Shown here in pieces: positions 3,598 to 61,392 of a DNA stretch of 64,000 nt. Position 1 is the first letter of the stretch; the number at the start of each line of letters is the position of its first letter. Made by a program: the position numbers and the translations under genes. The notes under the pieces are model-generated. The model saw nothing but the letters and a program-made list of their open reading frames with translations. It ran no database searches and was not told the DNA's origin. Source of the DNA: Eledone cirrhosa (Eukaryota); contig OZ024751.1 of the NCBI GenBank assembly GCA_964016885.1, positions 3,286,001 through 3,350,000 on the forward strand, written 5' to 3'.

Positions 3598-3651
3598 ACA
3601 CACACACACACACACACACAAATATATCTATATATATATTATATATATATA

Positions 3652-4058
3652 TATTAATTCAAAATATTCACTAAATTAGACATTCGTGTGATCAAGTATA
3701 TTATATTATACATATTTCAGAGGTACTGAGCTATCTTCAACAGTACGTCCTCATTAGATAAATAAGATGATGCATGACATACACTGACATAGTAGATGGT
3801 TAAGATTCAATCATGGTAGAGCGACCATCTACTATGTCAGGGTACGTCATGCATTATCTTATTTTATCTGATGAGGGCGTACTGTTGAAGATAGCTCAGT
3901 AGCTCTGAAATATGTATAATAAAATATACTTGATCACACGAATATCTATTTTTGTTAATATTTTGAATTAATAATATTTCCGGAAAACCCGACAGTGGAG
4001 TGCTTCCAATCTATTGTAAAACTAATTCTTTGATTTATTCATTGAACCTTGTTTAAAT
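3652..4058 (+). mobile_element. Fold-back HHR-bearing element, family B (PLE pLTR-like)
   Basis: Arms 3652-3800 and 3824-3972 are inverted repeats; the 3' extension gagtgcttccaatcta.tgtaaaact is homologous to 61388-61485; flanked by (TA)n. Confidence 0.8.
3860..3926 (+). ncRNA. Minimal type-I hammerhead ribozyme
   Basis: tattttat-CTGATGA-stem II (gggcgtactg/cagtagctc)-GAAA-tatgta-TA-ataaaata; 8-bp stem I and near-palindromic stem III. Confidence 0.75.
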
Positions 4059-4262
4059 ATATATATATATATGTAAGAATAATTTCTAAACAGCGACGGG
4101 GTTTGAAATTATTAGAAATGTAAGTTATCGCCGTATTTTGTACGTCAATACTCATCATTTTCAATTTCTCCGAGGGTTCTTAACCCCACTATCAGGCTAA
4201 CTAATTTCTTTAATTTCTTTAGTCAAAATACGGCGATAACATAGATGTATATATATATATAT

Positions 4263-7200
4263 AAAAACGTAAAAAATGAAACGAAATTTCATTTCCCACT
4301 CTTAGTACGGCTGTTACTTAAATATAAGTATGTACACGTACATACATATATGTATAAAGACGTACAGTAGTATGTATATATATATACATACATGCACACG
4401 TATGGATTCACCGAACATTTATTATAATGTTCGGTGTGTTTGTAAACAAACATCCCGTATTAAGCCGTAGTGTCTAGCAACCATCGTTGCTCGTTTGTTC
4501 AACACTGACAAAGGAACGCTGTACTAGCTTCAAGCTTATTAGCTATCGTCAGCAACGTATACCTTCCTGCCAGATTGTTGAACGTATACTTACCTTATGC
4601 ATATTTCAGTGTTGAACAAACGAGCAACGATGGTTGCTAGACACTACGGCTTAATACGGGATGTTTGTTTACAAACACACCGAGCATTATAATAAATGTT
4701 TGGTGAATCCATACGTACATATATATATATGTGTGCATGTATGTATATATATATATACATACTACTGTACGTCTGTATACATATATGTATGTACGTGTAC
4801 ATACTTATATTTAAGTAACAGCCGTACTAAGAGTGGGAAATGAAATTTCGTTTAATTTTTTTCCGTTTATCGTTTTCGGTGCACTAGGCCGATTAACCCA
4901 CTTGATATGCAAATTGGGCTACTCATCCGTTAATATGCATAAGGTAAGTATATCCGTTCAATAATCTGGCAGGAAGGTATACGTTGCTGACGATAGCTAA
5001 TAAGCTTGAAACTAGTACAGCGTTCCTTTGTCAGTGTTGAACAAACGAGCAACGATGGTTGCTAGACACAACGGCTTAATACGGGATGTTTGTTTACAAA
5101 CACACCGAGCATTATAATAAATGTTCGGTGAATCCATACGTACATATATATATGTGTGCATGTATGTATATATATATACATACGTACGTCTGTATACATA
5201 TATGTATGTACGTGTACATATTTATATTTAAGTAACAGCCGTACTAAGAGTGGGAAATGAAATTTCGTTTCATTTTTTCCGTTTATCGTTTTCGGTGTAC
5301 CCGGCCGATTAACCCACTCGATATGCAAATTGGGCTACTCAGCCGTTAATATGCATAAGGTAATTAAATACGTTCAACAATCTGGCAGGAAGGTATATGT
5401 TGCTGACGATAACTAATAAGCTTGAAACTAGTACAGCGTTCCTTTGTCAGTGTTGAACAAACGAGCAACGATGGTTGCTAGACACAACGGCTTAATAAGG
5501 GATGTTTGTTTACAAACACACCGAGCATTATAATAAATGTGAGGTGAATCCATACGTACATATATATATATGTGTGCATGTATGTATATATATATATATA
5601 CGTACTACTGTACGTCTGTATACATATATGTATGTACGTGTACATACTTATATTTAAGTAACAGCCGTACTAAGATTGGGAAATGAAATTTCGTTTCATT
5701 TTTTCCGTTTATCGTTTTCGGTGCACCCGGCCGATTAACCCACTCGATATGCAAATTGGACTACTCATCCGTTAATATGCATAAGGTAAGTATATGCGTT
5801 CAATAATCTGGCAGGAAGGTATACGTTGCTGACGATAGCTAATAAGTTTGAAACTAGTACAGCGTTCCTTTGTCCGTGTTGAACAAACGAGCAATGATGG
5901 CTGCTAGACACTACGGCTTAATACAGGATGTTTGTTTACAAACACACCGAGCATTATAATAAATGTTCGGTGAATCCATACGTACATACATATATATGTG
6001 TGCATGTATGTATATATATATACATACTACTGTACGTCTGTATACATATATGTATGTACGTGTACATACTTATATTTAAGTAACAGCCGTCCGAATAGTG
6101 GGAAATGAAATTTCGTTTCATTTATTCCGTTTATCGTTTTCGGTGCACCCGGACAATTAACCCACTCGATATGCAAATTGGGCTACTCAACCGCTAATAT
6201 GCATAAGGTAAGTATATACGTTCAACAATCTGGCAGGAAGGTATACGTTGCTGACGTTAGCTAATAAGCTTGAAACTATTACAGCGTTCCTTTGCCAGTG
6301 TTGAACAAACGAGCAACGATTGTTCCTAGACACTACGGCTTAATACAGGATGTTTGTTTACAAACACACCGAGCATTATAATAAATGTTCGGTGAATCCA
6401 TACGTACATATATATATGTGTGCATGTATGTATATATATATACATACGTACGTCTGTATACATATATGTATGTACGTGTACATACTTATATTTAAGTACA
6501 GCCGTACTAAGAGTGGGAAATGAAATTTCGTTTCATTTTTTCCGTTTATCGTTTTCGGGGTACCCGACCGATTAAGCCAATCGATATGCAAATTGGGCTA
6601 CTCAACCGTTAATATGCATATGGTAAATATATACGTTCAACAATCTGGCAGGAAGGTATACGTTGCTGACGATAGCTAATAAGCTTGAAACTAGTACAGC
6701 GTTCCTTTGTCAGTGTTGAACAAACGAGCAACGATGGTTGCTAGACACTACGGCTTAACACGTTATGTTTGTTTACAAATACACCGAGCATTATAATAAA
6801 TGTTCGTTGAATCCATACGTACATATATATATGTGTGCAGGTATGTATATATATATATACTTACTACTGTACGTCTGTATACATATATGTATGTACGTGT
6901 ACATACTTATATTTAAGTAACAGCCGTACCAAGATTGGGAAATGAAATTTCGTTTCATATTTTCCGTTTACCGTTTTCGGTGCACCAGGCCGATTAACCC
7001 ACTGGATATGCAAATTGGGCTACTCAGCCGTTAATATGCATAAGGTAAGTATATACGTTCAATAATCTGGCAGGAAGGTATGCGTTGCTGACGATAGCTA
7101 ATAAGCGTAAAACTAGTACAGAGTTCCTTTGCAAGTGTTGAACAAACGAGCAATGATGGTTGCTAGACACTACGGCTTAATACATGATGTTTGTTTACAA

Positions 7201-10200
7201 ACACACCGAGCATTATAATAAATGTTCGGTGAATCCATACGTACATATATATATGTGTGCATGTATGTATATATATATACATACTACTGTACGTCTGTAT
7301 ACATATATGTATGTACGTGTACATACTTATATTTAAGTAACAGCCGTACTAAGAGTGGGAAATGAAATTTCGTTTAATTTTTTCCGTTTATCGTTTTCGG
7401 TGCACCCGGCCGATTAACCCATTCGATATGCAAATTGGACTACTCAGCCGTTAATATGCATAAGGTAAGTATATCCGTTCAATAATCTGGCAGGAAGGTA
7501 TACGTTGCTGACGATAGCTAATAAGCTTGAAACTAGTACAGCGTTCCTTTGTCAGTGTTGAATAAACGAGCAAAGATTGTTGCTAGACACTACGGCTTAA
7601 TACGGGATGTTTGTTTACAAACACACCGAGCATTATAATAAGTGTTTGGTGAATCCATACGTACATATATATATGTGTGCATGTATGTATATATATATAT
7701 ATATATACATACGTACGTCTGTATACATATATGTATGTACGTGTACATACTTATATTTAAGTAACAGCCGTACTAAGAGTGGGAAATGAAATTTCGTTTC
7801 ATTTTTTCCGTTTATCGTTTTCGGTGTACCCGGCCGATTAACCCACTCGATATGCAAATTGGGCTACTCAGCCGTTAATATGCATAAGGTAATTAAATAC
7901 GTTCAACAATCTGGCAGGAAGGTATATGTTGCTGACGATAACTAATAAGCTTGAAACTAGTACAGCGTTCCTTTGTCAGTGTTGAACAAACGAGCAACGA
8001 TGGTTGCTAGACACAACGGCTTAATAAGGGATGTTTGTTTACAAACACACCGAGCATTATAATAAATGTGAGGTGAATCCATACGTACATATATATATAT
8101 GTGTGCATGTATGTATATATATATATATACGTACTACTGTACGTCTGTATACATATATGTATGTACGTGTACATACTTATATTTAAGTAACAGCCGTACT
8201 AAGATTGGGAAATGAAATTTCGTTTCATTTTTTCCGTTTATCGTTTTCGGTGCACCCGGCCGATTAACCCACTCGATATGCAAATTGGACTACTCATCCG
8301 TTAATATGCATAAGGTAAGTATATGCGTTCAATAATCTGGCAGGAAGGTATACGTTGCTGACGATAGCTAATAAGTTTGAAACTAGTACAGCGTTCCTTT
8401 GTCCGTGTTGAACAAACGAGCAATGATGGCTGCTAGACACTACGGCTTAATACAGGATGTTTGTTTACAAACACACCGAGCATTATAATAAATGTTCGGT
8501 GAATCCATACGTACATACATATATATGTGTGCATGTATGTATATATATATATACATACTACTGTACGTCTGTATACATATATGTATGTACGTGTACATAC
8601 TTATATTTAAGTAACAGCCGTCCGAATAGTGGGAAATGAAATTTCGTTTCATTTATTCCGTTTATCGTTTTCGGTGCACCCGGACAATTAACCCACTCGA
8701 TATGCAAATTGGGCTACTCAACCGCTAATATGCATAAGGTAAGTATATACGTTCAACAATCTGGCAGGAAGGTATACGTTGCTGACGTTAGCTAATAAGC
8801 TTGAAACTATTACAGCGTTCCTTTGCCAGTGTTGAACAAACGAGCAACGATTGTTCCTAGACACTACGGCTTAATACAGGATGTTTGTTTACAAACACAC
8901 CGAGCATTATAATAAATGTTCGGTGAATCCATACGTACATATATATATGTGTGCATGTATGTATATATATATACATACGTACGTCTGTATACATATATGT
9001 ATGTACGCGTACATACTTATATTTAAGTACAGCCGTACTAAGAGTGGGAAATGAAATTTCGTTTCATTTTTTCCGTTTATCGTTTTCGGGGTACCCGACC
9101 GATTAAGCCAATCGATATGCAAATTGGGCTACTCAACCGTTAATATGCATATGGTAAATATATACGTTCAACAATCTGGCAGGAAGGTATACGTTGCTGA
9201 CGATAGCTAATAAGCTTGAAACTAGTACAGCGTTCCTTTGTCAGTGTTGAACAAACGAGCAACGATGGTTGCTAGACACTACGGCTTAACACGTTATGTT
9301 TGTTTACAAATACACCGAGCATTATAATAAATGTTCGTTGAATCCATACGTACATATATATATGTGTGCAGGTATGTATATATATATATACTTACTACTG
9401 TACGTCTGTATACATATATGTATGTACGTGTACATACTTATATTTAAGTAACAGCCGTACCAAGATTGGGAAATGAAATTTCGTTTCATATTTTCCGTTT
9501 ACCGTTTTCGGTGCACCAGGCCGATTAACCCACTGGATATGCAAATTGGGCTACTCAGCCGTTAATATGCATAAGGTAAGTATATACGTTCAATAATCTG
9601 GCAGGAAGGTATGCGTTGCTGACGATAGCTAATAAGCGTAAAACTAGTACAGAGTTCCTTTGCAAGTGTTGAACAAACGAGCAATGATGGTTGCTAGACA
9701 CTACGGCTTAATACATGATGTTTGTTTACAAACACACCGAGCATTATAATAAATGTTCGGTGAATCCATACGTACATATATATATGTGTGCATGTATGTA
9801 TATATATATACATACTACTGTACGTCTGTATACATATATGTATGTACGTGTACATACTTATATTTAAGTAACAGCCGTACTAAGAGTGGGAAATGAAATT
9901 TCGTTTAATTTTTTCCGTTTATCGTTTTCGGTGCACCCGGCCGATTAACCCATTCGATATGCAAATTGGACTACTCAGCCGTTAATATGCATAAGGTAAG
10001 TATATCCGTTCAATAATCTGGCAGGAAGGTATACGTTGCTGACGATAGCTAATAAGCTTGAAACTAGTACAGCGTTCCTTTGTCAGTGTTGAATAAACGA
10101 GCAAAGATTGTTGCTAGACACTACGGCTTAATACGGGATGTTTGTTTACAAACACACCGAGCATTATAATAAGTGTTTGGTGAATCCATACGTACATATA

Positions 10201-13200
10201 TATATGTGTGCATGTATGTATATATATATATATACATACGTACGTCTGTATACATATATGTATGTACGTGTACATACTTATATTTAAGTAACAGCCGTAC
10301 TAAGAGTGGGAAATGAAATTTCGTTTCATTTTTTCCGTTTATCGTTTTCGGTGTACCCGGCCGATTAACCCACTCGATATGCAAATTGGGCTACTCAGCC
10401 GTTAATATGCATAAGGTAATTAAATACGTTCAACAATCTGGCAGGAAGGTATATGTTGCTGACGATAACTAATAAGCTTGAAACTAGTACAGCGTTCCTT
10501 TGTCAGTGTTGAACAAACGAGCAACGATGGTTGCTAGACACAACGGCTTAATAAGGGATGTTTGTTTACAAACACACCGAGCATTATAATAAATGTGAGG
10601 TGAATCCATACGTACATATATATATATGTGTGCATGTATGTATATATATATATATACGTACTACTGTACGTCTGTATACATATATGTATGTACGTGTACA
10701 TACTTATATTTAAGTAACAGCCGTACTAAGATTGGGAAATGAAATTTCGTTTCATTTTTTCCGTTTATCGTTTTCGGTGCACCCGGCCGATTAACCCACT
10801 CTATATGCAAATTGGACTACTCATCCGTTAATATGCATAAGGTAAGTATATGCGTTCAATAATCTGGCAGGAAGGTATACGTTGCTGACGATAGCTAATA
10901 AGCTTGAAACTAGTACAGCGTTCCTTTGTCCGTGTTGAACAAACGAGCAATGATGGCTGCTAGACACTACGGCTTAATACAGGATGTTTGTTTACAAACA
11001 CACCGAGCATTATAATAAATGTTCGGTGAATCCATACGTACATACATATATATGTGTGCATGTATGTATATATATATACATACTACTGTACGTCTGTATA
11101 CATATATGTATGTACGTGTACATACTTATATTTAAGTAACAGCCGTCCGAATAGTGGGAAATGAAATTTCGTTTCATTTATTCCGTTTATCGTTTTCGGT
11201 GCACCCGGACAATTAACCCACTCGATATGCAAATTGGGCTACTCAACCGCTAATATGCATAAGGTAAGTATATACGTTCAACAATCTGGCAGGAAGGTAT
11301 ACGTTGCTGACGTTAGCTAATAAGCTTGAAACTATTACAGCGTTCCTTTGCCAGTGTTGAACAAACGAGCAACGATTGTTGCTAGACACTACGGCTTAAT
11401 ACAGGATGTTTGTTTACAAACACACCGAGCATTATAATAAATGTTCGGTGAATCCATACGTACATATATATATGTGTGCATGTATGTATATATATATACA
11501 TACGTACGTCTGTATACATATATGTATGTACGTGTACATACTTATATTTAAGTAACAGCCGTACTAAGAGTGGGAAATGAAATTTCGTTTCATTTTTTCC
11601 ATTTATCGTTTTCGGTGTACCCGGCAGATTAACCCACTCGATATGCAAATTGGGCTACTCAACCGTTAATATGCATAACGTAAATAAATACGTTCAACAA
11701 TCTGGCAGGAAGGTATATGTTGCTGACGATAGCTAATAAGCTTGAAACTAGTACAGCGTTCCTTTATCAGTGTTGAACAAACGAGCAACGATGGTTGCTA
11801 GACACAACGGCTTAATACGGGATGTTTGTTTACAAACACACCGAGCATTATAATAAATGTTCGGTGAATCCATACGTACATATATATATGTGTGCATGTA
11901 TGTATATATATATATACATACTACTGTACGTCTGTATACATATATGTATGTACGTGTACATACTTATATTTAAGTAACAGCCGTACTAAGATTGGGAAAT
12001 GAAATTTCGTTTCATTTTTTCCGTTTATCGTTTTCGGTGCACCCGGCCGATTAACCCACTCGATATGCAAATTGAGCTACTCAGCCGTTAATATGCATAT
12101 GGTAAATATATACGTTCAACAATCTGGCAGGAAGGTATGCGTTGCTGACGATAGCTAATAAGCGTAAAACTAGTACAGCGTTCCTTTGCAAGTGTTGAAC
12201 AAACGAGCAATGATGGTTGCTAGACACTACGGCTTAATACATGATGTTTGTTTACAAACACACCGAGCATTATAATAAATGTTCGGTGAATCCATACGTA
12301 CATATATATATGTGTGCATGTATGTATATATATATACATACTACTGTACGTCTGTATACATATATGTATGTACGTGTACATACTTATATTTAAGTAACAG
12401 CCGTACTAAGAGTGGGAAATGAAATTTCGTTTCATTTTTTCCGTTTATCGTTTTCGGTGCACCCGGCCGATTAACCCATTCGATATGCAAATTGGACTAC
12501 TCAGCCGTTAATATGCATAAGGTAAGTATATCCGTTCAATAATCTGGCAGGAAGGTATACGTTGCTGACGATAGCTAATAAGCTTGAAACTAGTACAGCG
12601 TTCCTTTGTCAGTGTTGAATAAACGAGCAAAGATTGTTGCTAGACACTACGGCTTAATACGGGATGTTTGTTTACAAACACACCGAGCATTATAATAAGT
12701 GTTTGGTGAATCCATACGTACATATATATATGTGTGCATGTATGTATATATATATATATATACATACGTACGTCTGTATACATATATGTATGTACGTGTA
12801 CATACTTATATTTAAGTAACAGCCGTACTAAGAGTGGGAAATGAAATTTCGTTTCATTTTTTCCATTTATCGTTTTCGGTGTACCCGGCAGATTAACCCA
12901 CTCGATATGCAAATTGGGCTACTCAACCGTTAATATGCATAACGTAAATAAATACGTTCAACAATCTGGCAGGAAGGTATATGTTGCTGACGATAGCTAA
13001 TAAGCTTGAAACTAGTACAGCGTTCCTTTGTCAGTGTTGAACAAACGAGCAACGATGGTTGCTAGACACAACGGCTTAATACGGGATGTTTGTTTACAAA
13101 CACACCGAGCATTATAATAAATGTTCGGTGAATCCATACGTACATATATATATGTGTGCATGTATGTATATATATATATACATACTACTGTACGTCTGTA

Positions 13201-16200
13201 TACATATATGTATGTACGTGTACATACTTATATTTAAGTAACAGCCGTACTAAGATTGGGAAATGAAATTTCGTTTCATTTTTTCCGTTTATCGTTTTCG
13301 GTGCACCCGGCCGATTAACCCACTCGATATGCAAATTGGACTACTCATCCGTTAATATGCATAAGGTAAGTATATGCGTTCAATAATCTGGTAGGAAGGT
13401 ATACGTTGCTGACGATAGCTAATAAGCTTGAAACTAGTACAGCGTTCCTTTGTCCGTGTTGAACAAACGACCAACGATGGTTGTTAGAGACTACGGCTTA
13501 ACACGGGATGTTTGTTTACAAACACACCGAGCATTATAATAAATGTTCGTGGAATCCATACGTACATATATATATGTGTGCAGGTATGTATATATATACA
13601 TACTACTGTACGTCTGTATACATATATGTATGTACGTGTACATACTTATATTTAAGTAACAGCCGTACTAAGATTGGGAAATGAAATTTCGTTTCATTTT
13701 TTCCTTTTATCGTTTACGGTGCACCAGGCCGATTAACCCACTGGATTTGGAAATTGGGCTTACTCAGCCGTTAATATGCATAAGGTAAGTATATACGTTC
13801 AATAATCTGGCAGGAAGGTATGCGTTGCTGACGATAGCTAATAAGCGTGAAACTAGTACAGCGTTCCTTTGCAAGTGTTGAACAAACGAGCAATGATAGC
13901 TGCTAGACACTACGGCTTAATACAGGATGTTTGTTTACAAACACACCGAGCATTATAATAAATGTTCGGTGAATCCATACGTACATACATATATATGTGT
14001 GCATGTATGTATATATATATACATACTACTGTACGTCTGTATACATATATGTATGTACGTGTACATACTTATAATTAAGTAACAGCCGTCCGAATAGTGG
14101 GAAATGAAATTTCGTTTCATTTATTCCGTTTATCGTTTTCGGTGCACCCGGACAATTAACCCACTCGATATGCAAATTGGGCTACTCAACCGCTAATATG
14201 CATATGGTAAATATATACGTTCAACAATCTGGCAGGAAGGTATACGTTGCTGACGATAGCTAATAAGCTTGAAACTAGTACAGCGTTCCTTTGTCAGTGT
14301 TGAACAAACGAGCAACGATGGTTGCTAGACACTACGGCTTAACACGTTATGTTTGTTTACAAATACACCGAGCATTATAATAAATGTTCGTTGAATCCAT
14401 ACGTACATATATATATGTGTGCAGGTATGTATATATATATATATACTTACTACTGTACGTCTGTATACATATATGTATGTACGTGTACATACTTATATTT
14501 AAGTAACAGCCGTACCAAGATTGGGAAATGAAATTTCGTTTCATATTTTCCGTTTACCGTTTTCGGTGCACCAGGCCGATTAACCCACTGGATATGGAAA
14601 TTGGGCTACTCAGCCGTTAATATGCATAAGGTAAGTATATACGTTCAATAATCTGGCAGGAAGGTATGCGTTGCTGACGATAGCTAATAAGCGTAAAACT
14701 AGTACAGCGTTCCTTTGCAAGTGTTGAACAAACGAGCAATGATGGTTGCTAGACACTACGGCTTAATACATGATGTTTGTTTACAAACATACCGAGCATT
14801 ATAATAAATGTTCGGTGAATCCATACGTACATATATATATGTGTGCAGGTATGTATATATATATATACTTACTACTGTACGTCTGTATACATATATGTAT
14901 GTACGTGTACATACTTATATTTAAGTAACAGCCGTACTAAGAGTGGGAAATGAAATTTCGTTTAATTTTTTCCGTTTATCGCTTTCGGTGCACCCGGCCG
15001 ATTAACCCACTCGATATGCAAATTGGACTACTCAGCCGTTAATATGCATAATGTTCAATAATCTGGCAGGAAGGTATACGTTGCTGACGATAGCTAATAA
15101 GCTTGAAACTAGTACAGCGTTCCTTTGTCAGTGTTGAATAAACGAGCAAAGATTGTTGCTAGACACTACGGCTTAATACGGGATGTTTGTTTACAAACAC
15201 ACCGAGCATTATAATAAGTGTTTGGTGAATCCATACGTACATATATATATGTGTGCATGTATGTATATATATATATATACATACGTACGTCTGTATACAT
15301 ATATGTATGTACGTGTACATACTTATATTTAAGTAACAGCCGTACTAAGAGTGGGAAATGAAATTTCGTTTCATTTTTTCCATTTATCGTTTTCGGTGTA
15401 CCCGGCAGATTAACCCACTCGATATGCAAATTGGGCTACTCAGCAGTTAATATGCATAACGTAAATAAATACGTTCAACAATCTGGCAGGAAGGTATATG
15501 TTGCTGACGATAGCTAATAAGCTTGAAACTAGTACAGCGTTCCTTTGTCAGTGTTGAACAAACGAGCAACGATGGTTGCTAGACACAACGGCTTAATACG
15601 GGATGTTTGTTTACAAACACACCGAGCATTATAATAAATGTTCGGTGAATCCATACGTACATATATATATGTGTGCATGTATGTATATATATATATATAC
15701 ATACAACTGTACGTCTGTATACATATATGTATGTACGTGTACATATTTATATTTAAGTAACAGCCGTACTAAGATTGGGAAATGAAATTTCGTTTCATTT
15801 TTTCCGTTTATCGTTTTCGGTGCACCCGGCCGATTAACCCACTCGATATGCAAATTGGACTACTCATCCGTTAATATGCATAAGGTAAGTATATGCGTTC
15901 AATAATCTGGCAGGAAGGTATACGTTGCTGACGATAGCTAATAAGTTTGAAACTAGTACAGCGTTCCTTTGTCCGTGTTGAACAAACGAGCAACGATGGT
16001 TGCTAGAGACTACGGCTTAATACGAGATGTTTGTTTACAAACACACCGAGCATTATAATAAATGTTCGGTGAATCCATACGTACATATATATATGTGTGC
16101 ATGTATGTATATATATACATACATACTACTGTACGTCTGTATACATATATGTATGTACGTATACATACTTATATTTAAGTAACAGTCGTACTAAGAGTGG

Positions 16201-16991
16201 GAAATGAAATTTCGTTTAATTTTTTCCGTTTTTCGTTTTCGGTGCACCCGGCCGATTAACCTACTCGTATGCAAATTGGGCTACTCAACTGTTAATATGC
16301 ATAAGGTAAGTATATACGTTCAACAATCTGGCAGGAAGGTATACGTTGCTGACGATAGCTAATAAGCTGGAGACTAGTACAGCATTCCTTTGCCAGTGTT
16401 GAACAAACGAGCAACGATGGTTGCTAGACACTACGGCTTAATACGGGATTTTTGTTTACAAACACACCGAGCATTATAATAAATGTTCGGTGAATCCATA
16501 CGTACATATATATATGTGTGCATGTATGTATATATATATATACTACTGTACGTCTGTATACATATATGTATGTACGTGTACATACTTATATTTAAGTAAC
16601 AGCCGTACTAAGAGTGGGAAATGAAATTTCGTTTCATTTTTTCCGTTTATCGTTTTCGGTGCACCCGGCCGATTAACCCACTTAATATGCAAATTGGGCT
16701 ACTCAGCCGTTAATATGCATAAGGTAAGTATATATGTTCAACAATCTGGCAGGAAGGTATACGTTGCTGACGATAGCTAATAAGCTTGAAACTAGTACAG
16801 CGTTCTTTTGTCAGTGTTGAACAAACGAGCAACGATGGTTGCTAGACACTACGGCTTAATACGGGATGTTTGTTTACAAACACACCGAGCATTATAATAT
16901 ATGTTCGGTGAATCCATACGTACATATATATATGTGTGCATGTATGTATATATATATACATACGTACGTCTGTATACATATATGTATGAAC

Positions 16992-16999
<8 letters not shown>
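4263..16999 (+). repeat. Tandem array of ~421-bp HHR-containing units (retrozyme-like satellite, family A): inverted segment 4263-4605, then about 29.5 forward units
   Basis: The CTGACG core recurs at 4987, 5403, 5829, 6251, 6666, 7088 ... 16349, 16767 (29 times); units are highly similar; flanked by (TA)n. Confidence 0.95.
4982..5022 (+). ncRNA. Minimal type-I hammerhead ribozyme (representative of 29 array copies); predicted cleavage after GUA at 5017
   Basis: cgttg-CTGACGA-t-agct(aata)agct-t-GAAA-ctag-TA-cagcg; palindromic stem III ACTAGT; stem I extends through ctggca..aagg/cctt.tgtcag and gttcaa/ttgaac. Confidence 0.88.
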
Positions 17000-17039
<40 letters not shown>

Positions 17040-17043
<4 letters not shown>

Positions 17044-17302
17044 CAAAATGTTAACAAATGAAAAATATTCTCATAATCAAAATATATACTCTATTATACA
17101 TATTTCAAAAGTACTATAGTGTTTAAATACGTTTTCATCAGACAAAATATATGATTTGATATATGACACACTGCTACGGTTTTGATTATTCAATTCCAGT
17201 ACTGCCAATACTGGAATTGAATAATCAAAACTGTAGCGGTATGTCTAATCTATTGTAATATTGTATTCGTTGAGTAATCAACGAACCACACTAATCTTTG
17301 GT
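17040..17302 (-). mobile_element. Family B element with a minus-strand HHR (17087-17149) and an internal hairpin (17165-17246)
   Basis: Minus strand tattttgt-CTGATGA-aaacgtatt..agtactttt-GAAA-tatgta-TA-atagagta; homologous to the 3652 and 61388 elements. Confidence 0.72.
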
Positions 17303-17333
<31 letters not shown>

Positions 17334-17334
17334 C

Positions 17335-17450
17335 TGAAGACTAAAATCCGAAGAGGGCTCGATAAGGATTATATATATAAAAACCGTAGAGCAAATATTT
17401 ATTAAAATAGCAAATTAAAGTTTAATCAAAGAATCGCTGTTTTCACCCGT
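17335..17450 (-). repeat. Truncated copy of family G
   Basis: gaagactaaaatccgaagagggctcgataa...tttcaccc is shared with 20195-20360 and 31845-32037. Confidence 0.75.
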
Positions 17451-17804
17451 AATATATCGCAAAGCATGTTGTACGACGCGCCAAAGATTCTGTCAGGCCA
17501 CCACGAAGGCAACAGCAATAATAATTTATAATTTTGGCAAATGAGCATGTTAAACTTAATTTGGCCATAGCCCATTTCGTCCAGAGAACAAACACAATGT
17601 GAAAGAGAAAGAAAGCGAAGAAGAATCTACCCAGTATTAGATTCCTAATTTATACAACTCAATGTTGGCTTCGCTGACATTTGAACTCTGGTCGTGGAGA
17701 CCCCGAAATGAGCAGCATAAATCATTCTATTCGACATCCTAACCACTCCGCCACTCCGCTTCCTACATTTTCTTAAATAAAGACCTGCTATAGACAAATA
17801 GACG

Positions 17805-18010: not shown

Positions 18011-18509
18011 TACCATTGATCTTTCGATTGCTGATACTATCTGCTGGTCGCAACAGCTGGTAGAAGGAGCAAAGTGAAATAAAGTATCTTGCTGAAAAAC
18101 ACAATGTTCCTTCATCCTAACCACTAGGTCACACACCTTCACAAACAGATAAGCAGATAGATGATTGCTTTTGTGAATTAAATTTTTTGCTTGTTTTTTG
18201 TTAATGTGGGTTTGCGACTTAACGAAGATCTCACTCACCTGAGGGTATGCGTCAGCTCTTGCCTGTATGGAAACATCATAACCATGAGTGGTGGCCATGG
18301 CCCGCATTGTCTGCAACTGACCATATCTCTCTCGTTTTCTCCACTTGGCACGTCTGTTCTGGAACCAAACCTAAGCAGGACATGATTAAAACAAATTCTA
18401 TAGTATGATAGGTGTGAAATACACAGAGAAAAGTGTATGGAAATTATTTAGATGAAAAGTATTATTGTAAATATAGGCGTTAGAATGTTGGATAGAATGT
18501 TTTATGGTA

Positions 18510-19074: not shown

Positions 19075-20030
19075 ATCCTGAAACCAGGGATCGCGCTACC
19101 GATTCAGCAGTTATGGCTCTAAGAGGAATGGCTTCAGGCTATCGGGTGAAACGATCAATGCAGGTCAGGATGTTTGAACATCCACGACTGACAGGGCAAA
19201 GTCCCACAATATCGATATGTATGTGGTAAAAACGTGCGTCAGGTGTGCTAAATGTGCCGAGAAGTGAACGAATATGTTCATGCAACATCGACTTCTGACA
19301 AGACAAACAGGAACGTGACCAAGCAGTGATATCACGTCTCATATTCGGCCAGAAGAATCTAGCCGAAATGAGTTTCACTGTGGTAGAAATTCCGGGGTGT
19401 TCTAGGCTGTGTAGAGAGTAAAAAACTATTCGACGATGAGTCTCTGGGACCAGTGGGCGAAGTGAATCTGTCGCCGTATCACACAGAATCTGAAAGTCCG
19501 AAGTGGGTACAGACAGGTATTTGAATTTGCAGGTTGCTAATTCTGGTGGAGAGAGATCCAACGACTCTAGGGTGGGCTGTTCTGCAACCATAAGATACAA
19601 GTCAATATTCGCAGGTGCTGACAAGGAATTCATGGGTAGGCGAGATAAGGCATCCGCCGCTGTATTTTGTTCACCAGGGATATGACGAATGCCATTCGTA
19701 AACTGGGAAATGAAGTCCAAATGACGAGTTTCCCGTGACGAGTTAGTGTCCGGCTTGGAACAAAGTGCGAACGTAAGCGGTCGATGGTCGGTACAGATCG
19801 TATATTGTTGGCCTTCCAGTGAATGCCAAAAAATGGCTAACAGCTCGCGGCCGAAAGTGCTATAGCGGGATTCGGCAGGCTTTAGCTGCTTTGAAAAGAA
19901 AGCAAGAGGTTGAAGCTGTTGTTGGTGATGATGTTGCAATACTGCACCTACCGCTGTGATTGATGCATCCACAACCAGCGAAAACTGGGCATCAGACACA
20001 TGGTGTGCAAGCAAGGATGCGTTTGCTAAA
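19075..20030 (-). mobile_element. Ty3/Gypsy pol fragment (RNase H, integrase HHCC zinc-binding region, start of integrase core); no LTRs seen
   Basis: ORF 19139-20095 contains VDASITAVGAVL, PLAFFSKQL..ESRYSTFGRELLAI, TDHRPL, H..HPG...FFWPNMRRDI...C..CQ and HIDIVG...LTCIDRFTR; a stop interrupts the integrase. Confidence 0.93.
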
Positions 20031-20194
20031 TTATGTTTATATTCATACGCGATCAAAACGATTGGTTTGTTTAACCAAATCACGTATGAATACACTGTTG
20101 TTGCGATATACGAAATAGCTCCGCTACAAGTACCTTATTTAACTGTGGTTAACCTCCGACAACACTATATATATATAGTAATAATAATACATGT

Positions 20195-20360
20195 GAAGAC
20201 TAAAATCCGAAGAGGGCTCGATAATGATAATATATATACAAAATATATAAAAGAACCCTAGAGCAAATATTTATTAACATAACAGATTAAAGTTTAAGCA
20301 AAGAATCGGTGCTTTCACCCTTAACGGGATCTTCTGAAACTAAAAAAATCAATCTGTGGA
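20195..20360 (-). mobile_element. Family G element with a variant HHR (20291-20341)
   Basis: Minus strand agttt-CAGAAGA-t-ccc(gttaa)ggg-t-GAAA-gca(9 nt)tgc-TT-aaact. Confidence 0.6.
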
Positions 20361-20699
20361 CGCAGAAGTAAATATTTCGAAAAACGTCGGAAAACCGAAG
20401 GAAAGCAAGAAGACGATACTTTGGTTCGTGGCAATGGACGGGAAAAAACGAGTATAATTACGTCGTTATGTGGAGCGTTGAGAATAATTCCACGCAAAGA
20501 CAAAAAACATGTCTATGGTATAAATGGAGTCAATAAACCAATATTCTATTTAGAAAACCGAATGATTCTCAGCTCCGGAGTTTAAGAATAATGTAAATAA
20601 ATGTGTTGAACGAAAATGACAGAGGTTATTAAAATCTTAAAAGTAAGTAATAAGATTTAGGCCAGTACATATACAATATATATATAAGTTTATCCCGGG

Positions 20700-22340
20700 T
20701 TTAATCGGGGGTAACTACAGTAAGGTACTCAATACAAAGCTGAGTATAAATAATTAATATAGAAAAGCTTCTACATGACTAGAACTGTTTCATTCGTGAG
20801 AAATCATCAGGAAGCTGACTGTCCAAGTAATATGCTGGTATTTATATCTTTTCTGGTGGTAGGAGAGGGTGGTGATTGGGATGGTGGAGGTCATTGGTTG
20901 ATGGGTTTAAAGAAAAGGGAATTTTTAAAAAGCTACTACTTCCCATTGAAGTGTATATGGTCTATTCCTAGTTTTCAGAGAGTGTATGTAGCTAGATAAA
21001 GAAGCAGAGTTGGCTAGATTGTGTTTTTTGAAAGAGTGGAGGTGCGAGTTGTATCTCGTCTTGAAGCAGTTCAAAGTAGAGCCACTATATGTTTTAAAAG
21101 AGTTGTTTGTGTTGACCGTGCATGAGTAAATTATGTCTTTGATTAAGTAATTATTACCTAAGGGGCAAGTCCTATTAGTTCTACAGTTACATTTATTCCG
21201 GATGTTTGCTTACCGGTTACTATGTTGTGTAGAAGTCTGGTTGCTAGGGATATCATTAGGGTAATGATGGTTGTCATTCCTATTGTTATTGATTTCATTA
21301 GTGCTATTACCATTATTACTATTACTACTAGGATTTACAGGTACTGAGTTTACCTCCTGTTATGTTTTAATTAGTTGGAAATAATTATTAATCTTCCTTT
21401 TATTACTACTAGCTATATAGTATGCGATGTTAGGTGTGGTAGAGTAAGAGATTTTAATGGTATTTTTATTTTTATGGTATTTGTGGCCAGATGGGAAGTT
21501 TTTTCCAGGATTGAGAAGAAAGCCTTAAGCAAGTTGGTAGAGACGTTTAGATTGAAAGGGGGATTGAACAATGTATTAGTTCTTCTATTTTTGTTTTTTG
21601 TAATGTTTTTTGGGGTATTTGTATTTCTGTTTATATTATTATTGTGGTGTTTACTTTGGTGCGAGTTAAGTTTGTTATTACCCTTCGTATTAGAGTTAGA
21701 GTGGCTAACTAGGATTACTATTAAAGTCTTCCTTATGGTCTTTCAGAGAGAATCTTGGGGGGTTAGGGTGTATGGATGTGTATGTGTATGAAGTCCTAAT
21801 TTACACACTATACTACGGCCGTCTATATTTATATCTTCTAGGTTTTTAATAGTAGTTTTCTTATAGGCTCCTATGTAGTTCTTTATATATAAATTTTCTA
21901 TATGTATCGTAATCTAAGTTATATATATATTATTAATTTTATCTGCATGTACTAGAATTTTTTTTTTTTATTAAATCCTTTAATAGTGGAGTTAAGGTTG
22001 TTTAAAAAGGTGTTGTTTCTATTACGATGTTTTTGTACCTTATGTTCTTAACTAGTTTTATTAGATGATTTTCAAAAGAGTTTAATAAGGTGTTGTGAGG
22101 AGGGCTTTTAAAAGTTTTAAAGCCGTAAGAGTCGAAATTGTTTGTATCTCTGTTTTTGTCTGATCGGTTTCTATCGTAATGGAATGTCCTCCATCTCATT
22201 CTATTGATAAAAGAGTTGACACTATTAATAAATAATTTTTCATATGTATCTTTAGATGGTATTGGTATGTTCTTAGTAGACATAGGAAGGTAATCTTTTA
22301 TTAGCATACTGGTAATTTAATGTATGTTAGCTCAACAGTA
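20700..22340 (-). mobile_element. Degenerate, internally deleted Penelope-like element with an HHR in the 3' pLTR (20766-20816)
   Basis: ORF 22002-22307 (KNIPIPS..FINRMRWR) is a PLE-type N-terminus; CNC...CPL and GIY-YIG remnants at ~21050-21200; agcttc-CTGATGA-tttctcacgaat-GAAA-cag...atg-TA-gaagct. Confidence 0.8.
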
Positions 22341-22730: not shown

Positions 22731-24841
22731 CTTCCAAACTTTCGTTTGGAGTCATCGGAGCATTAGCAATGTTTGTACATATAATTAACCTCCTATTCAA
22801 CTGAACAATCATAGAGATACATATATATTGATGTTGTGAACAACAGTTTCGTATTTACAGGGTGTAATGGATGTGACAGATATTATACGAGAATTGTACA
22901 ATAATTCAAATTCAAATTAAAAGCACAGAGTGGAATACATGCGACAGATAATACAAGAGAATAGTCTAATAATTAAAGAGGCATTGAGAAAGAATGAGGA
23001 CACTAGCAGTACATATGCAAGCGTGTAGAAAGTGCACATGCGTTAGTCATATATATGAGAAGGAAACAAGCAAAGGTATTAGGCATATATAAATAAATAA
23101 ATAAATAAATAAATACTGTATGGCAAAGGTATCACATAAAATATTAGCATATTAAGCAAATGTTTTAGTGTATTAAAATTTACGGTGGATGTTATGTGAT
23201 GATAGTGTTCAAATTTGTATGTTTTGAGAGTATCAATGTTATTGTTTTCTTTTCCATTACATATGTTAAATTATATTTTAGTTAATGTTTATATTGAATG
23301 TTTTTAGTTAGTTACAGCAATGGATTGTAAAATGGTCTTATTGTATTCTTATTCATGGATTAGAGTTGTTCTACAACGAGTTATTCTAACGGTTTAATTT
23401 CAGGAAGTGAGTATGAGATCCAAAATTAAGGGGAGATAATGCGTAAGGGGAGGTAACTAGCTAATTAAATTAAATTATATGGGAAAGTATCAATTAATTA
23501 AATTATTTTCTCTAATATATAATATATTGTGTTACAAGTGAATCCCTTCTACATAATGTTATATACTTATATTTAATTTTAAATACAGACTATTTTCCTA
23601 TAATACATTAAAGGTCTCATTAGATTGTTATCTTGTCCATTACTGGACAAGATATAAGTTATGGAAAAATGTATAGCTGTTTACATGTCCAATTAGTTAA
23701 ATCATTTGTGTTAATAATTGTTTCTACTTTTGGCACAAGACCAGCAATTACCGAGTGTATTACTGGTACTTTATTTTATTGACCCTGTAAGGATGAAAGG
23801 CAAGGGCCGTAACTCTATGTGTTAATAATATACGTAATATTGCGTTAAAAGTTAATCCCTTATATACAATGCTATTAATTTATATATTTAATTATAAATG
23901 TATATATAATTTATTATCACATATAACATTAAATGTCTCTACATATATATCTATTATTGTATATAATATAAGTAAGCTATAGTAGTTATATTAAAAGGGG
24001 GTAATGTTATGTTTATTTCTAATAGTTATTGTAGAGTATAAGGTTTGAGATAAATAGGAGTCGTGTAGAGGAAAGAGTTGATCAAAGAGTGTGATACTGT
24101 GGGGGCTGATAATTGTGTAACCTCTGTCTTCTAGAGACCCGTACTATAATCTTTTCGAAACTAGACCTCCTAAAGAGAAAATCAGAGGTGTTTTCCTCAT
24201 GCCAGCACCACTACCGACACTCGTTCCATAATTTTAAACATAGCTGCTAGTATATAACAATGTCAGATTTGGATTTCTCACCACCATTAACCCTTCTCTA
24301 GGACTTATTAGCCCCCACAGGTACATGAAAGTCACTGAGTTGCAGAAACCCTATACCGGATTTTACCATTTCCGAAAGGGGTACGGGTAAATTTTTCAAC
24401 CATATATCACTATTTGTTTGACACGAATAGCTTGTTCGCGTTTTTGGCTTTGCGGTTAATGGTTTAACCATTGTCTTAGTGTGTATGGCCTTTTAAACGT
24501 ATGTTTATTGCTCTAGAACACTCGTATCTATCGAGCGCTTGCCACACAATTCGGAAGCTGTTTTTCGCTAATTTCCACTAGACGAAATGCGATTCTCGCT
24601 AATTTATATTTGTATTAACCTCCAGAGTCTAGCTATTAACCAGTTAATTTTTTTGATTTTTTTAGTTAATTCTATTGACTGATTAATAGCTTATGTTTAT
24701 TTTAAAAACTATTCTGTCGAGAGCTTTATTCGTTTTCTGATATTTTGCAATTTTACAATAACCACAACTACTGATTTCATCCGCCAAAACTAGGGGTTCT
24801 CTCCATTTTGAGTCCGCACGTACGTTCAGATCACGGCGAGA

Positions 24842-25047
24842 CCCATCTTGTTTTTGTGTGTGTTGTGTGCTTAGTTTGCGCATGTGTTACATCCGGGTGT
24901 CTGTGTGTGTTTATATTTGTTTATTTATTTGTTTATTTACATGTTACTGGTTGGTTGTTTTTACTATGTGTGTGTATAAACACACACAGACACCCGGCTG
25001 TAGCACATGCGCAAATTAAGCTCACAACACACACATAAACAAGATGG
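24842..25047. repeat. Inverted repeat with ~73-bp arms and a ~60-bp spacer
   Basis: ccatcttgttt...gggtgtctgtgtgtgtttata / tataaacacacacagacaccc...aaacaagatgg. Confidence 0.85.
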
Positions 25048-25421: not shown

Positions 25422-25474
25422 ATGTGTGTATATGCGTATATTTATTGTATGTATGTGTATGTGTGTATGTATAT

Positions 25475-26764
<1,290 letters not shown>

Positions 26765-26765: not shown

Positions 26766-27598
26766 AGAATGAATAATAACAGGTAGACATCATAAAAAGG
26801 TAATTTATTCCGTGTGCTTACAAGTGTTTCCACGGTGGTACTGCAGCCTAGTTCCGCTACGTGCAAATTCACAAGTATTTGCAGAACTCGAATATCCATT
26901 GCTGTGACCACTGTTTCCTCAGAGCAGAATGGTAAATGTACAATGTAAAAACCCTTAAGTGGGGTTGTTGGGGAAGATAGAGTGGTAGATCCGATATAAT
27001 ACCATTTCTGGTCGTTCGATTCAACCGTGCATTGGTAAACAATGTTGGACTTTAGGCATTCATTCTGCAATGGACATCTTTCAGGTAGATGGCAGTTACA
27101 TTCTTTGTTGTGGGTAGCGGGTATACCATGGATAGGTTGTGATAGCGGTACAGGTGGGTTGTGCAATACCCGTCTCCCATTTAGTGGTTGGGAGGCAGAT
27201 ATTGCGTTCTGCCCATTTGTTACTAAAATGTTTTGTTTTGTAGAGTTGTTTAATTGCCTTAAGTTAAGTTTTTTTATGTATGCTTCAAGGTTTGGTGCCG
27301 TGGAGTATGATAGTCTAATAATTTTAGAGTTCAGAATTTTGCTGTACTTATGGGAACTAGGGAAGTGTTTATTGATTAATTTAAAGAATGAAAGAGATAG
27401 TTTTGTACTAATCGAGGCATTAAATATAGGATTGTACCAGATATACTTTCTACAACGTGATTTATTTGGTGGTGATCTTCTATTATTAGTATGTCTGGTA
27501 GTACCGTGTGTGTGGGCTTGTGTTTTAGTCCCCCGGTTACGTATACCTTGATTACGTGTAGAGCTATGTGTGTTGTGGAAATTCCTATCGATGTATTC
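26765..27598 (-). mobile_element. Penelope-like fragment (Cys linker and GIY-YIG start) fused to a pLTR with a long-stem-II HHR (26815-26926)
   Basis: IWYNP..HFPSSHKYSKILN..IRLSYST and CNC..CPLQNECLKSNIVYQCTV..YYIGST; tgct-CTGAGGA-aacagtggt...accaccgtg-GAAA-cacttg-TA-agca. Confidence 0.85.
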
Positions 27599-28559: not shown

Positions 28560-28791
28560 CTTTATAGAATTCTTTCTGCCTTTGTTACTCTAAATATATC
28601 TTTCAAAGAATCAGCTTTTAAAGAATTCCCTTTTCTTTAAACCCATCAACCAATGACCTCCACCCGTCCCTATCACCACCCTCTCCTACCACCAGAAAAG
28701 ATATAAATACCAGCATATTACTTGGGCAGTCAGCTTGCTGATGATTTCTCACGAATGAAACAGTTCTAGTCCTGTAGAAGCTTTTCTATAT

Positions 28792-28795
<4 letters not shown>
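28560..28795 (+). mobile_element. Solo PLE 3' end/pLTR with an HHR (28732-28782)
   Basis: Reverse complement of 20755-20930; agcttg-CTGATGA-tttc(tcac)gaat-GAAA-cag(ttctagtc)ctg-TA-gaagct. Confidence 0.78.
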
Positions 28796-28869
<74 letters not shown>

Positions 28870-28871: not shown

Positions 28872-29662
28872 CAGTATTTTCCGTAGTGTTGTAATATAAA
28901 TATTACACACAGTAGATGGACGGCTCACGTAGAGTTTGCTCGACGGTTCCAGTTGTAGTTCCAAAAGTAATCCGGAGAAAAATAGAAGGATTTAAATGGA
29001 TACAGTTTAGTTAAAAGGAATTTATTGACACGTGTTTCAATAACAGTTACATAACCTGAAAACAGCTGCTATCTACAAAGTATTAGTTATGTAGACATTC
29101 AATATTTCGATGTTATTATCAACTGTCATTTAATCAGAATAATTTTACTGAGGACCTGTTTGGTTTTTATAGAGAATATTAGGAGGGAGGGGTGATGTTG
29201 TTAGAAGAATATCGAGGGAGTGGTTTTTTGATAGCAGTGAGAATTTTTGGTGGCAGTGAGTAATTAGATTCCCATCTGTTGTTTTGACATTTTTATAGAA
29301 TATATTATTGGTTATTTTTCTAAATCTATAGAAGGATTAGAGATAGTATAGATATGCATGGTTGGTTTTGTGTTTGCACTTAATTAACATTCAGACTTAA
29401 ATCTTTCTTTCAAGTGTACGTATCCTTTCGCCCACGCATTCACACACAAACATATATGCACACCTCTACAAAATACATATACTCACATACACATACTTAC
29501 ATGCTCATACTTACATACATATACACATGCACATATATATATACATATATATACATATATACATGCACATACATACGCATTCATGTGTATACATTTTCAT
29601 ACTCAACTTATCTTTATATACACACGTATAGACACACACATATATACATACATACTCCAGTC

Positions 29663-29739
<77 letters not shown>

Positions 29740-31393
29740 ACTTTAATACATGAATACACTTACATCTAACTATACACATCAAACATATATATATATATTT
29801 ACTTATTTATATACATTTTCACATATATATACATACATATGGTCGCTTTTAGACACATTCATTATGGCATATTTGCACCTATTCTCATCAGCATATCTTT
29901 CCATTATTAGTGTGGTAATTTAAGGTTATTAATATACATATATATGTTGAGAAGAGATTGTTTTTATATTTTTCTAACTAGATTGAGGTTTATATAGTTG
30001 GGGGGATGTCCCTCTTTTATGTAATATTCAGCTTGTAGTGGGAAAAAAGGGTTTTAGTTCGGTGACGGCAGAATAATGCTCGTTCAATTCTGTTATTAAG
30101 CAATTTCTTCTTGTGCGTGATTATGTAATTAATCTCAAGATTACACAATTTTCAGAAATTTTGGCTCCTGGAAAAGCTTTGGGTTTTAGCTAATTTCTCC
30201 CATTTTAGGGTAAACTTTTGATCGCTATCCCTGAGCGTCCAAGCTTTTTCTGCTAAAGTTGTTACATTTCTTTGGCTCTGGTGTTTTATTGAGTAAGAAT
30301 GCCTATATAATCGAGATTTAAACGATGTTGCCGTTGATCCCACGTAATACCACTCGTTGCCTCCGGATTTAATGGTACACTTATAAATGATATTTTTTTC
30401 CAGGCAGTTATTGCCGAGGGGGCAGTTGTCAGGATAGGTGCAGTTACAGTTGTGTACGTTGAGTTTTCTCTGGAGTAGTATTGCGGACGAACTTAGGTGT
30501 GGTTTATTTATGTTCTGTAGTGTATTGTCTACTGTTTTTTTTGTGTTCTTTGTACTTAAGTTTTTAGTGTTTTCGTTTAACCTTCTAGTATTGATCTTTT
30601 TTATGTGTTGTTCAAGGTTTAACGCTGTAGAGTATGACAGTCTTATAGTGGTAGGGTTTAGGATTTTGTGGTATTTGTGTGATGTAGGAAAATGTCTCTT
30701 AATTATTTTAAAGAAGAGTACTGGAAAATTTGTACTAATGGAACTATTGTATTCAGGGTTATACCATAAGTACTCTTTGCATCGCTTTCTATTAGTTTTG
30801 TTTGTTGGTTTACTGGTGTGTATACTATGGTAGTAAGTGTGGTTTGGTCTTGTGTTATTATATCTGCCTATGTGGGATTTATTTTGGGTGTTTTGATTGT
30901 TCTCATCTATATACTCTATTTTGTTGAGGTAGCCTGCTTTACTAAGGGCGTTATCGTAGTACTCGGCGTGTTCCTTAAATACTTGTATGTTAGAAGATAG
31001 ACCCGAGATTCTAAGGGAAATATTTTTAGGGATAGATTTAATTATAGAGATGGGGTGGTTAGACCCAACATTTTCGTACTTGAGATTTTCATTCAATTTA
31101 TGAAACGGTTTAATCAGACCAGAGTTTAAATTGAGTGTGACATCCAGGAAGTTAACTACTTTAAGGTTGTATTCATATGTTATAGTTAGTCCTATTTCGA
31201 GTAGTAGTTTTCTTATATCTTTGCGTAGTTGATAATAACGTAGTTGATAATAACATAGTTGATAATAACATTGAAATATTGAATGTCTGCATAACTAATA
31301 CTTTGTAGATAGCAGCTGTTTTCAGGTTATGTAACTGTTATTGAAACACGTGTCAATAAATTCCTTTTAACTAAACTGTATCCATTTAAATCC

Positions 31394-31400
<7 letters not shown>
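28870..31400 (-). mobile_element. 5'-truncated Penelope-like element: RT thumb and GIY-YIG ORF (30152-31096), 3' pLTR, and an inverted partial pLTR at 31255-31399
   Basis: SNHPISIIKSIP and CNC..CPLGNNCLEKNIIYKC..YYVGSTATSFKSR; 31255-31399 is the reverse complement of 28983-29123; HHR-like motif at 29022-29142 (CTGATTA...GAAA-cacgtg-TC). Confidence 0.92.
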
Positions 31401-31469: not shown

Positions 31470-31473
<4 letters not shown>

Positions 31474-31712
31474 GTAGAACACTGGAAGGTAATATCAGTA
31501 GTGGTAGAGCACTCAGTCCATGGGACGAGTCAGATAGAAGTGGTTACACAACAGTTAGTTCACCATACCGAGAACAATTGTTTCACCTTAGCGGATCCTC
31601 AGCTCGTAATGGACATGTTCTATATAACCATGTCCATTACGAGCTGAAGATCCGCTAAGGTGAAACAATTGTTCTCGGTATGGTGAACTAACTGTTGTGT
31701 AACCACTTCTAT
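31470..31712. mobile_element. Fold-back element, family D, with an HHR in each arm (+ 31640-31677; - ~31569-31606)
   Basis: Arms 31534-31617 and 31629-31712; cgag-CTGA(A/G)GA-tcc(gctaa)ggt-GAAA-caattg-TT-ctcg; flanked by (TA)n. Confidence 0.8.
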
Positions 31713-31799: not shown

Positions 31800-31844
<45 letters not shown>

Positions 31845-31850
<6 letters not shown>

Positions 31851-32037: not shown

Positions 32038-32052
32038 TTTTATTATTATTAC

Positions 32053-34637: not shown

Positions 34638-34644
<7 letters not shown>

Positions 34645-61387: not shown

Positions 61388-61392
<5 letters not shown>

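Follow-up and report, generated by a model that had tools for sequence, protein, structure and literature searches.

The window analysed here, by which we mean the whole 64-kb stretch of DNA, contains a repeat of about 421 bp that we call family A. Self-BLAST and a tandem-repeat search located it in one array (L1) and in three short loci near 34.6, 46.7 and 61.1 kb (L2 to L4). Position 1 of the unit was set to the base directly after the predicted hammerhead cut, and the arms were aligned to a reference unit of 415 nt. The outer ends were assigned by hand from these alignments with an accuracy of +/-3 nt owing to TA microhomology. At 4/4 loci, the alignment showed two family A arms joined 5'-to-5':

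4263 to 4605, minus strand: short arm of L1, unit position 330 to about 266, spanning the hammerhead site, with the tail at its outer end
4263 to 4328, minus strand: tail of L1, 66 nt that are missing from the outer end of the other arm
4522 to 4552, minus strand: core of the hammerhead in the short arm of L1, with a single core base altered
4606 to about 17003-17007, plus strand: long arm of L1, about 29.5 units, position 14 to about 202, tail-less end in (TA)n
34640 to 34988, minus strand: tail-less arm of L2, position 300 to about 210, hammerhead core 34894-34864 intact
34989 to 35238, plus strand: tail-bearing arm of L2, position about 40 to 268, 63-nt tail
46682 to 47055, minus strand: tail-less arm of L3, position 232 to 211, core 46894-46864 intact, internal deletion of 35 nt
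47054 to 47729, plus strand: tail-bearing arm of L3, position 35 to about 270, 1.6 units, 59-nt tail, core 47423-47453
61055 to 61258, minus strand: tail-less arm of L4, position 12 to 213
61258 to about 61349, plus strand: tail-bearing arm of L4, position 169 to 268, 47-nt tail, small deletions

The arms meet between 4605 and 4606 in L1, between 34988 and 34989 in L2, at 47054-47055 in L3 and at 61258 in L4, and the alignments at L1, L3 and L4 overlap at the junction by about 0-2 nt. The original prediction had stated that all four loci begin with an inverted piece and that the breakpoints are unlike at each locus. Both points were borne out (4/4 loci by arm alignment), and the coordinates it gave for the inverted segments were correct to about 2-3 nt. 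The inverted part measured from 44 to more than 250 nt, consisted of the unit itself and met the other arm at a different junction in each locus. Since two arms joined 5'-to-5' always show an inverted segment first when read on the plus strand, the real content of the observation is the head-to-head arrangement at 4/4 loci. The sense strand of family A is given by the hammerhead motif, and all four loci are therefore head-to-head with their 3' ends pointing outward.

The hammerhead was predicted from the sequence of the unit. In the first full unit of the array it lies as follows:

4966 to 5034, plus strand: predicted type I hammerhead, core 4987-5017, predicted cut after 5017

The motif has a stem I of 6 bp, a core of CUGACGA and GAAA, a stem II of 4 bp with a U-U mismatch at its base, and a stem III that is short and palindromic. 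The mismatch takes the place of the usual G-C at base pair 10.1-11.1 and resembles the base of helix II in the axolotl motif HHR_Amex2 (described in a passage of PMC7229834). A strict scan of the window returned 24 matches, of which 20 belonged to family A and the other 4 to a second family; the reversed and the complemented window gave 0 matches each. The core pattern was intact in 24 of the 33 family A copies and broken in 9. When a stretch of 141 nt was submitted to Rfam, the model Hammerhead_HH9 matched 4969-5040 with E=0.008 and 19.7 bits, far under the family threshold of 52. The fold of the 69-nt motif formed stems I and II and was no better than that of shuffled sequences (z=-1.2, 18/200 as good). 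PMC4209133 outlines type I motifs of metazoans that act as dimers; their helices I and II measure 6 and 4 bp, and helix III is short and palindromic. Only 1/9 predicted frog retrozymes cleaved in vitro according to the text available from a preprint (bioRxiv 10.64898/2026.07.22.740005).

Several computations were set aside. Co-folding two hammerheads produced an intermolecular structure that was not a clean dimeric hammerhead. The fold of a whole unit (z about -7) was dominated by the TA-rich hairpin, and the unit used had a broken core. Rfam applied to the whole window gave 565 matches, and the 150 listed were all sub-threshold microRNA models on AT-rich hairpins. Exact hammerhead patterns had 0 matches in metagenome contigs and 0 in viral contigs.

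The units of family A measure 410-426 bp and have 36.4% GC, which agrees with the size and GC content of retrozymes. No coding capacity was recognised: the stop-to-stop frames found, about 90-110 aa long, are of low complexity, and a Hydra RT/EN protein profile built from 60 relatives had zero matches in any family A locus. Because of its unit size, its GC content of 36% and its lack of coding sequence, family A fits the definition of a non-LTR retrozyme as far as PMC7229834 sets it out in the text available. We conclude that family A is, by its sequence, a non-coding tandem non-LTR retrozyme with a predicted hammerhead.

The outer ends of the arms fell into two clusters, at unit positions ~266, 268, ~270 and 268 and at ~202, ~210, 211 and 213 (L1 to L4). 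One end from each cluster was present at 4/4 loci; alone, this pairing is weak, having a chance of 1 in 16. The clusters together take up 15 nt in two arcs, and 0/400,000 uniform draws were as tight. When the draws were restricted to the ends of A/T runs, p was 9e-5. The inner breakpoints, at unit positions 330, 14, 300, ~40, 232, 35, 12 and 169, were scattered over two arcs of 189 nt (p=0.52).

Only one arm of each locus carried a tail, which was 66, 63, 59 and 47 nt long at L1, L2, L3 and L4 and contained a hairpin. In L1 it sits on the short arm, hence the long array is the tail-less arm. This one-sided extra stretch of 47-66 nt is the 'tail' published for Penelope-like elements (PLEs). At the target sites, 6/8 outer ends run into (TA)n and L3 ends in an AT-rich 13-mer, in line with the earlier statement that the ends lie in or beside AT-rich, usually (TA)n, sequence. 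L3 also has a duplication at its borders:

46674 to 46686, plus strand: left copy of the 13-bp duplication TAATCATTAATAT, overlapping the end of the L3 element by about 5 nt
47725 to 47737, plus strand: right copy of the duplication, resembling a target-site duplication (TSD)

A TSD was thus visible at 1/4 loci, and the other three lie in (TA)n. Apart from neighbouring copies of a second hammerhead family (family B), the flanks of the loci had nothing in common. An artefact of assembly fold-back was rejected because substitutions and indels distinguish the two arms at L1, L3 and L4, the end positions obey a rule and the duplication is present at L3.

For comparison, the window contains a PLE that does not belong to family A:

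28872 to 31399, minus strand: 5'-truncated and frameshifted PLE with an inverted 3'-repeat arm at 31257-31399 and (TA)n on both sides

Its inverted arm was 98.6% identical to 28982-29124, and the main arm extends 110 nt beyond it, forming a one-sided tail. A degenerate hammerhead with a long stem II lies at 29137-29027. The element covers positions 362-656 of the 701 positions of the profile, followed by a frameshifted piece (661-699), and the catalytic half of the RT is gone. The original prediction had described a 'true PLE' with the same inverted-pLTR architecture. The architecture was confirmed by the inverted 3' repeat; the element itself, being 5'-truncated and frameshifted, is a PLE copy rather than an intact autonomous element. 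The best match between the PLE repeat and family A was an AT-rich stretch of 17 nt that was not significant (E=0.043). With no significant sequence in common, this PLE is not the donor or partner of family A. An autonomous PLE with a 3' end or pLTR matching family A was not found in the 64-kb window.

The PLE was classified with the help of its protein relatives. The ORF piece at 30155-31294 (minus strand) matched three full-length proteins of 699-714 aa with 33-34% identity. For the protein P0001, 2,243 relatives were found among 7,999 candidates scored, and its look-alike clusters bear HTH_animal, GIY-YIG or RVT_1. Among 118 of 122 fetched proteins of 650-760 aa, RW[KR] was present in 113/118, ADKT in 108/118 and CxCx5C in 115/118. 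According to section 11 of PMC8557442, the marks of the Hydra clade are RWK, DKT, a CxCX5C linker, a C-terminal GIY-YIG and a short ORF, with (TA)n as the target. The copy in the window has the CxCx5C linker and the (TA)n flanks; RWK and DKT were seen only in the full-length relatives because the copy is truncated. By these motif marks, the PLE is assigned to the Hydra clade. Pfam returned no informative family for the window PLE ORF or for P0001-P0003, and a PDB sequence search with alignment A1 gave nothing under E=0.09.

The Hydra profile also found more remnants at about 20.9-22.3, 24.1, 26.8-27.5 and 36.7-37.1 kb. One is a decayed Hydra-type PLE at 20430-22316 (minus strand), and 191 bp of its 3' region are repeated at 28613-28803, just left of the PLE at 28872, with 94.8% identity. 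Others lie at 26770-27590 (minus), 24113-24247 (plus) and 36700-37113 (plus), and a weak two-domain match (E=0.001) extends over 62703-63998 (plus). The remnant at 26.8 kb has a very long (TA)n tract on either side, and a hammerhead-like motif with a long stem was seen in it by eye.

Other elements were observed in the neighbourhood. Family B occurs at 3647-4056, 17040-17300 and 61389-61798 with head-to-head arms, and two of its loci have a one-sided extension of 79 and about 97-105 nt. Two family B copies adjoin family A loci directly across (TA)n. A composite element of A and B was rejected, as the B copy at L1 adjoins it with the tail-less end of B, and the copy at L4 with the tail end. Family C (31471-31712) is a palindromic element of 180 bp next to the PLE, with an extension of 63 nt on one side and a hammerhead-like core that was seen by eye and not returned by the scans. 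Family D (17326-17500, 20187-20400 and 31843-32043) comprises three related short elements and has a possible hammerhead core; one of the three has inverted arms. At 25472-25702 and 26099-26181, a sequence of 43-84 bp is present in inverted and direct copies around (TA)n, possibly as PLE-type stubs, and further short inverted repeats lie at 4118-4246, 24843-25047 and 48621-48704. A fragment of an LTR retrotransposon with RNase H and integrase zinc-binding domains is found at 19139-20134 (minus). At about 18240-18370 (minus), an exon-like stretch codes for the final part of a homeodomain (Pfam E=0.011). The gene is putatively paired-type or aristaless-like, and its introns may contain or adjoin the repeats. 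Judging by the other repeats, the host may be an octopus.

The occurrence of family A in sequencing reads was analysed by comparing 4 of 23 listed runs with one monomer and the right flank of L3. Family A sequence was abundant in the reads of organism A and continued head-to-tail in other copies. Matches were found in 28,194 contigs of run X1 and in 96,248 of 12.5 million reads of run X21, many of them partial or limited to the TA-rich core. In run X5 (organism B), the match consisted of low-depth contigs and was left out of statements on the range. The RAD reads begin and end at restriction sites, and an AATT at 47704 masks the outer end of L3. No empty allele of L3 was seen in the four runs compared. 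Among 15 listed of 150 read joints, 5 switch strand, and 2 of these were set aside owing to the self-complementary TA core. The remaining 3 had distinct breakpoints at 47400, 47414 and 47439, each joined to 47680-47682, off restriction sites and with one read start each. They suggest more inverted copies, with the head-to-head orientation deduced from the lengths of the sides, and could also be PCR chimeras.

The arms also hold information on their template. In 5/8 arms (L1 short, L1 long, L2 minus, L3 minus and L3 plus), the sequence continues past the outer-end site into the next unit. The template of these arms, which span the unit boundary, therefore consisted of joined units, as in a multimer or a circle. 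The two arms of L2 differ by 1 mismatch in 185 nt, and L2 is 79-87% identical to the arms of the other loci (alignments of at least 180 nt). Two insertions carried by L2 and L3 are absent from both L1 arms. Private variants shared by the arms of one locus would fit one RNA family per insertion event; gene conversion between the inverted arms could be an alternative source of the similarity within a locus.

The units of the L1 array differed by 2.1% substitutions at lag 6 compared to 5.1-6.3% at lags 1-5, and several unit pairs at lag 6 had 0-2 substitutions. From this 6-unit period, which is a higher-order repeat, we infer that the array gained most of its 12.4 kb after the insertion, through the duplication of DNA blocks. 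Lag 3 is slightly closer at 5.1% and hints at an older 3-unit block. The changes that break the hammerhead lie at fixed positions of the 6-unit repeat, so that intact and broken ribozymes alternate over 4606-17003.

How the loci were inserted can be compared to the known behaviour of PLEs. Their insertions have an adjacent inverted, 5'-truncated copy and a tail of 30-40 bp at one end, which can be either end (PMC8557442), and TSDs of 8-10 bp surround inverted pLTRs, with integration in trans via the pLTRs (PMC3846280). In the passages available, these two sources agree with the original prediction that an inverted 5'-truncated pLTR is typical of PLE insertions. The purified lizard PLE nicks both strands of AT-rich DNA, its RT starts at two internal RNA sites that delimit the tail and hammerhead cleavage is dispensable in vitro; the same account (PMC11167929, parts of the text) describes the one-sided tail and the head-to-head arms as unique to PLEs. 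The finding of both on a retrozyme is therefore mechanistic and not circumstantial support. The tail was also present on the PLE at 28872-31399 and on 3/3 other inverted elements measured (2 of family B, 1 of family C). The family A tails of 47-66 nt exceed the 30-40 nt given in PMC8557442, which speaks against a PLE.

Taken together, we consider it highly likely that the family A loci, four within one 64-kb window, were inserted in trans by a PLE enzyme. The original prediction that a PLE RT/GIY-YIG mobilises family A in trans, and that it does not spread as a satellite alone, is supported by the hammerhead, the two fixed outer ends and the duplication at L3. It is limited by the finding that satellite-type DNA duplication built most of the L1 array.

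We propose that a tandem family A copy would be transcribed and that the hammerhead, probably as a dimer, would cut some of the sites to yield monomers, multimers or circles. A PLE protein would nick (TA)n or AT-rich DNA on both strands, and the RT would start at two fixed internal sites of the RNA, which lie at unit position ~266-270 for one end of the target and at ~202-213 for the other; both steps are modelled on the part of PMC11167929 available. The two cDNAs would end at variable points and be joined 5'-to-5', giving the one-sided tail and, at L3, the 13-bp duplication, products that are present at the loci. The long arm of L1 would then grow by DNA block duplication to the higher-order array, of which the 6-unit pattern is visible. 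The enzyme would most likely be that of a Hydra-clade PLE, since members of this clade occur in the window and (TA)n is their known target; this is the weakest step.

The inner ends may hold a further trace of the RNA. In 4/8 arms, one per locus, the inner end lies 12-40 nt past the predicted cut, which was noticed post hoc and has p=0.004. Possibly, the junctions record the action of the ribozyme, such that one cDNA ran off the cleaved end of the RNA and the other arms read through a circle or an uncut multimer, an idea that we hold as tentative and rather doubtful.

A different origin in cis has to be weighed, in which family A would be the pLTR of an autonomous PLE elsewhere and the loci 5'-truncated stubs made from the RNA of that PLE. 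The insertion geometry equals that of ordinary truncated PLE copies, and the 2026 preprint (bioRxiv 10.64898/2026.07.22.740005) in its available text derives retrozymes from pLTRs with local amplification thereafter. However, coding sequence was reached by 0/8 arms and no family A locus matched the Hydra profile. Five arms wrap into the next unit, so the template ran from unit to unit, and unit-to-unit joins also occur in the contigs of run X1 and in one contig of X5. We therefore regard stubs made in cis as improbable.

Two further explanations dispense with reverse transcription by a PLE. A non-autonomous Helentron of the HINE/DINE-1 type would move by rolling-circle DNA transposition, with the inverted repeat and the microsatellite as normal parts. 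As described in PMC4067079 (in the portion available), HINEs have inverted repeats in an asymmetric position, with one copy only 2-4 nt and its partner 38-60 bp away from the respective end, a palindrome or hairpin near the 3' end and internal microsatellites; family A has an offset of 47-66 nt, a tail hairpin and a TA-rich core. Unlike HINEs, family A has no fixed subTIR of 12-15 bp, its inverted unit is long (44 to more than 250 nt) with variable junctions, and its ends lie in (TA)n with one 13-bp duplication at L3, whereas HINEs target T-rich sites without duplication. The hammerhead in the unit and the identical geometry on a real PLE would be left unexplained, and we give a Helentron origin very little credence. 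The other explanation is a satellite that spreads as DNA, for example by extrachromosomal circles, with the inversions being scars of repair or template switching at AT-rich breaks and no RNA step. The 6-unit period of L1 is an amplification at the DNA level, and unit and targets are AT-rich and hairpin-forming, as this would require. It does not predict the two fixed outer ends with one of each per locus (p=9e-5 among the ends of A/T runs), the steady 5'-to-5' polarity relative to the ribozyme or the recurrence of this tail geometry among hammerhead families that are unrelated, and is in our view just as hard to credit as the Helentron. A MITE has terminal inverted repeats at both ends that flank a constant interior; it was rejected, as the termini of family A are different unit positions and the interior changes per locus. 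The fixed TIRs or TSDs of a MITE or Helentron, named in the original prediction as counter-evidence, were not found at the family A loci.

Insertion in trans by a PLE enzyme places family A between systems that are already known. Like the metazoan non-LTR retrozymes, as portrayed in the accessible text of PMC7229834 and bioRxiv 10.64898/2026.07.22.740005, it has a non-coding tandem unit of 150-450 bp with low GC (<45-50%) and a type I hammerhead per unit, occurs from dimers to long multimers and shares its genome with PLEs. Unlike these retrozymes as described there, its dispersed copies are two-armed and head-to-head with a one-sided tail. The words 'tail' and 'junction' are absent from the preprint text available, and inverted arms are unmentioned in the available parts of PMC7229834 and PMC8490949. 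With the EN+ PLE insertion unit (PMC8557442, PMC3846280 and PMC11167929, each as excerpted), family A has in common the inverted 5'-truncated copy, the tail at one end, the AT-rich or (TA)n target, an occasional TSD and the hammerhead upstream of the 3' ends; it differs in having no ORF and a unit that joins itself, besides the longer tail. Chlamys MRC1 and Chlamys-N4 are similar in being non-coding PLE derivatives, multicopy head-to-tail, that are moved by an autonomous PLE (passages of PMC8557442 and PMC9977147). Unlike family A, they are algal, belong to an N-terminal-EN clade mostly without hammerheads and have a 3' end like that of their partner.

PLEs have been called strong candidates for the movers of retrozymes (PMC7229834, in the section available), and for frogs the case was argued from co-occurrence and pLTR similarity in the accessible part of bioRxiv 10.64898/2026.07.22.740005. 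Among the papers listed by our literature search, which covered few subscription journals, none dealt with inverted insertions of retrozymes or with family A, and family A may already be annotated in Repbase or Dfam. Retrozymes as non-autonomous PLEs have thus already been proposed in print, and new here is the support at the level of the junctions. The advance is modest, with four loci, no partner PLE found and each ingredient already published; the geometry of tail and head-to-head arms can be tabulated in any assembly. If the junctions do record ribozyme action, the timing of cleavage by PLE-type hammerheads in vivo would be readable from retrozyme insertions in the genome, even though a purified PLE did not need this cleavage in vitro. 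Hydra-clade enzymes would then be common to several retrozyme families that are unrelated and have no pLTR of matching sequence. Family A illustrates a retro-inserted unit becoming a higher-order satellite array.
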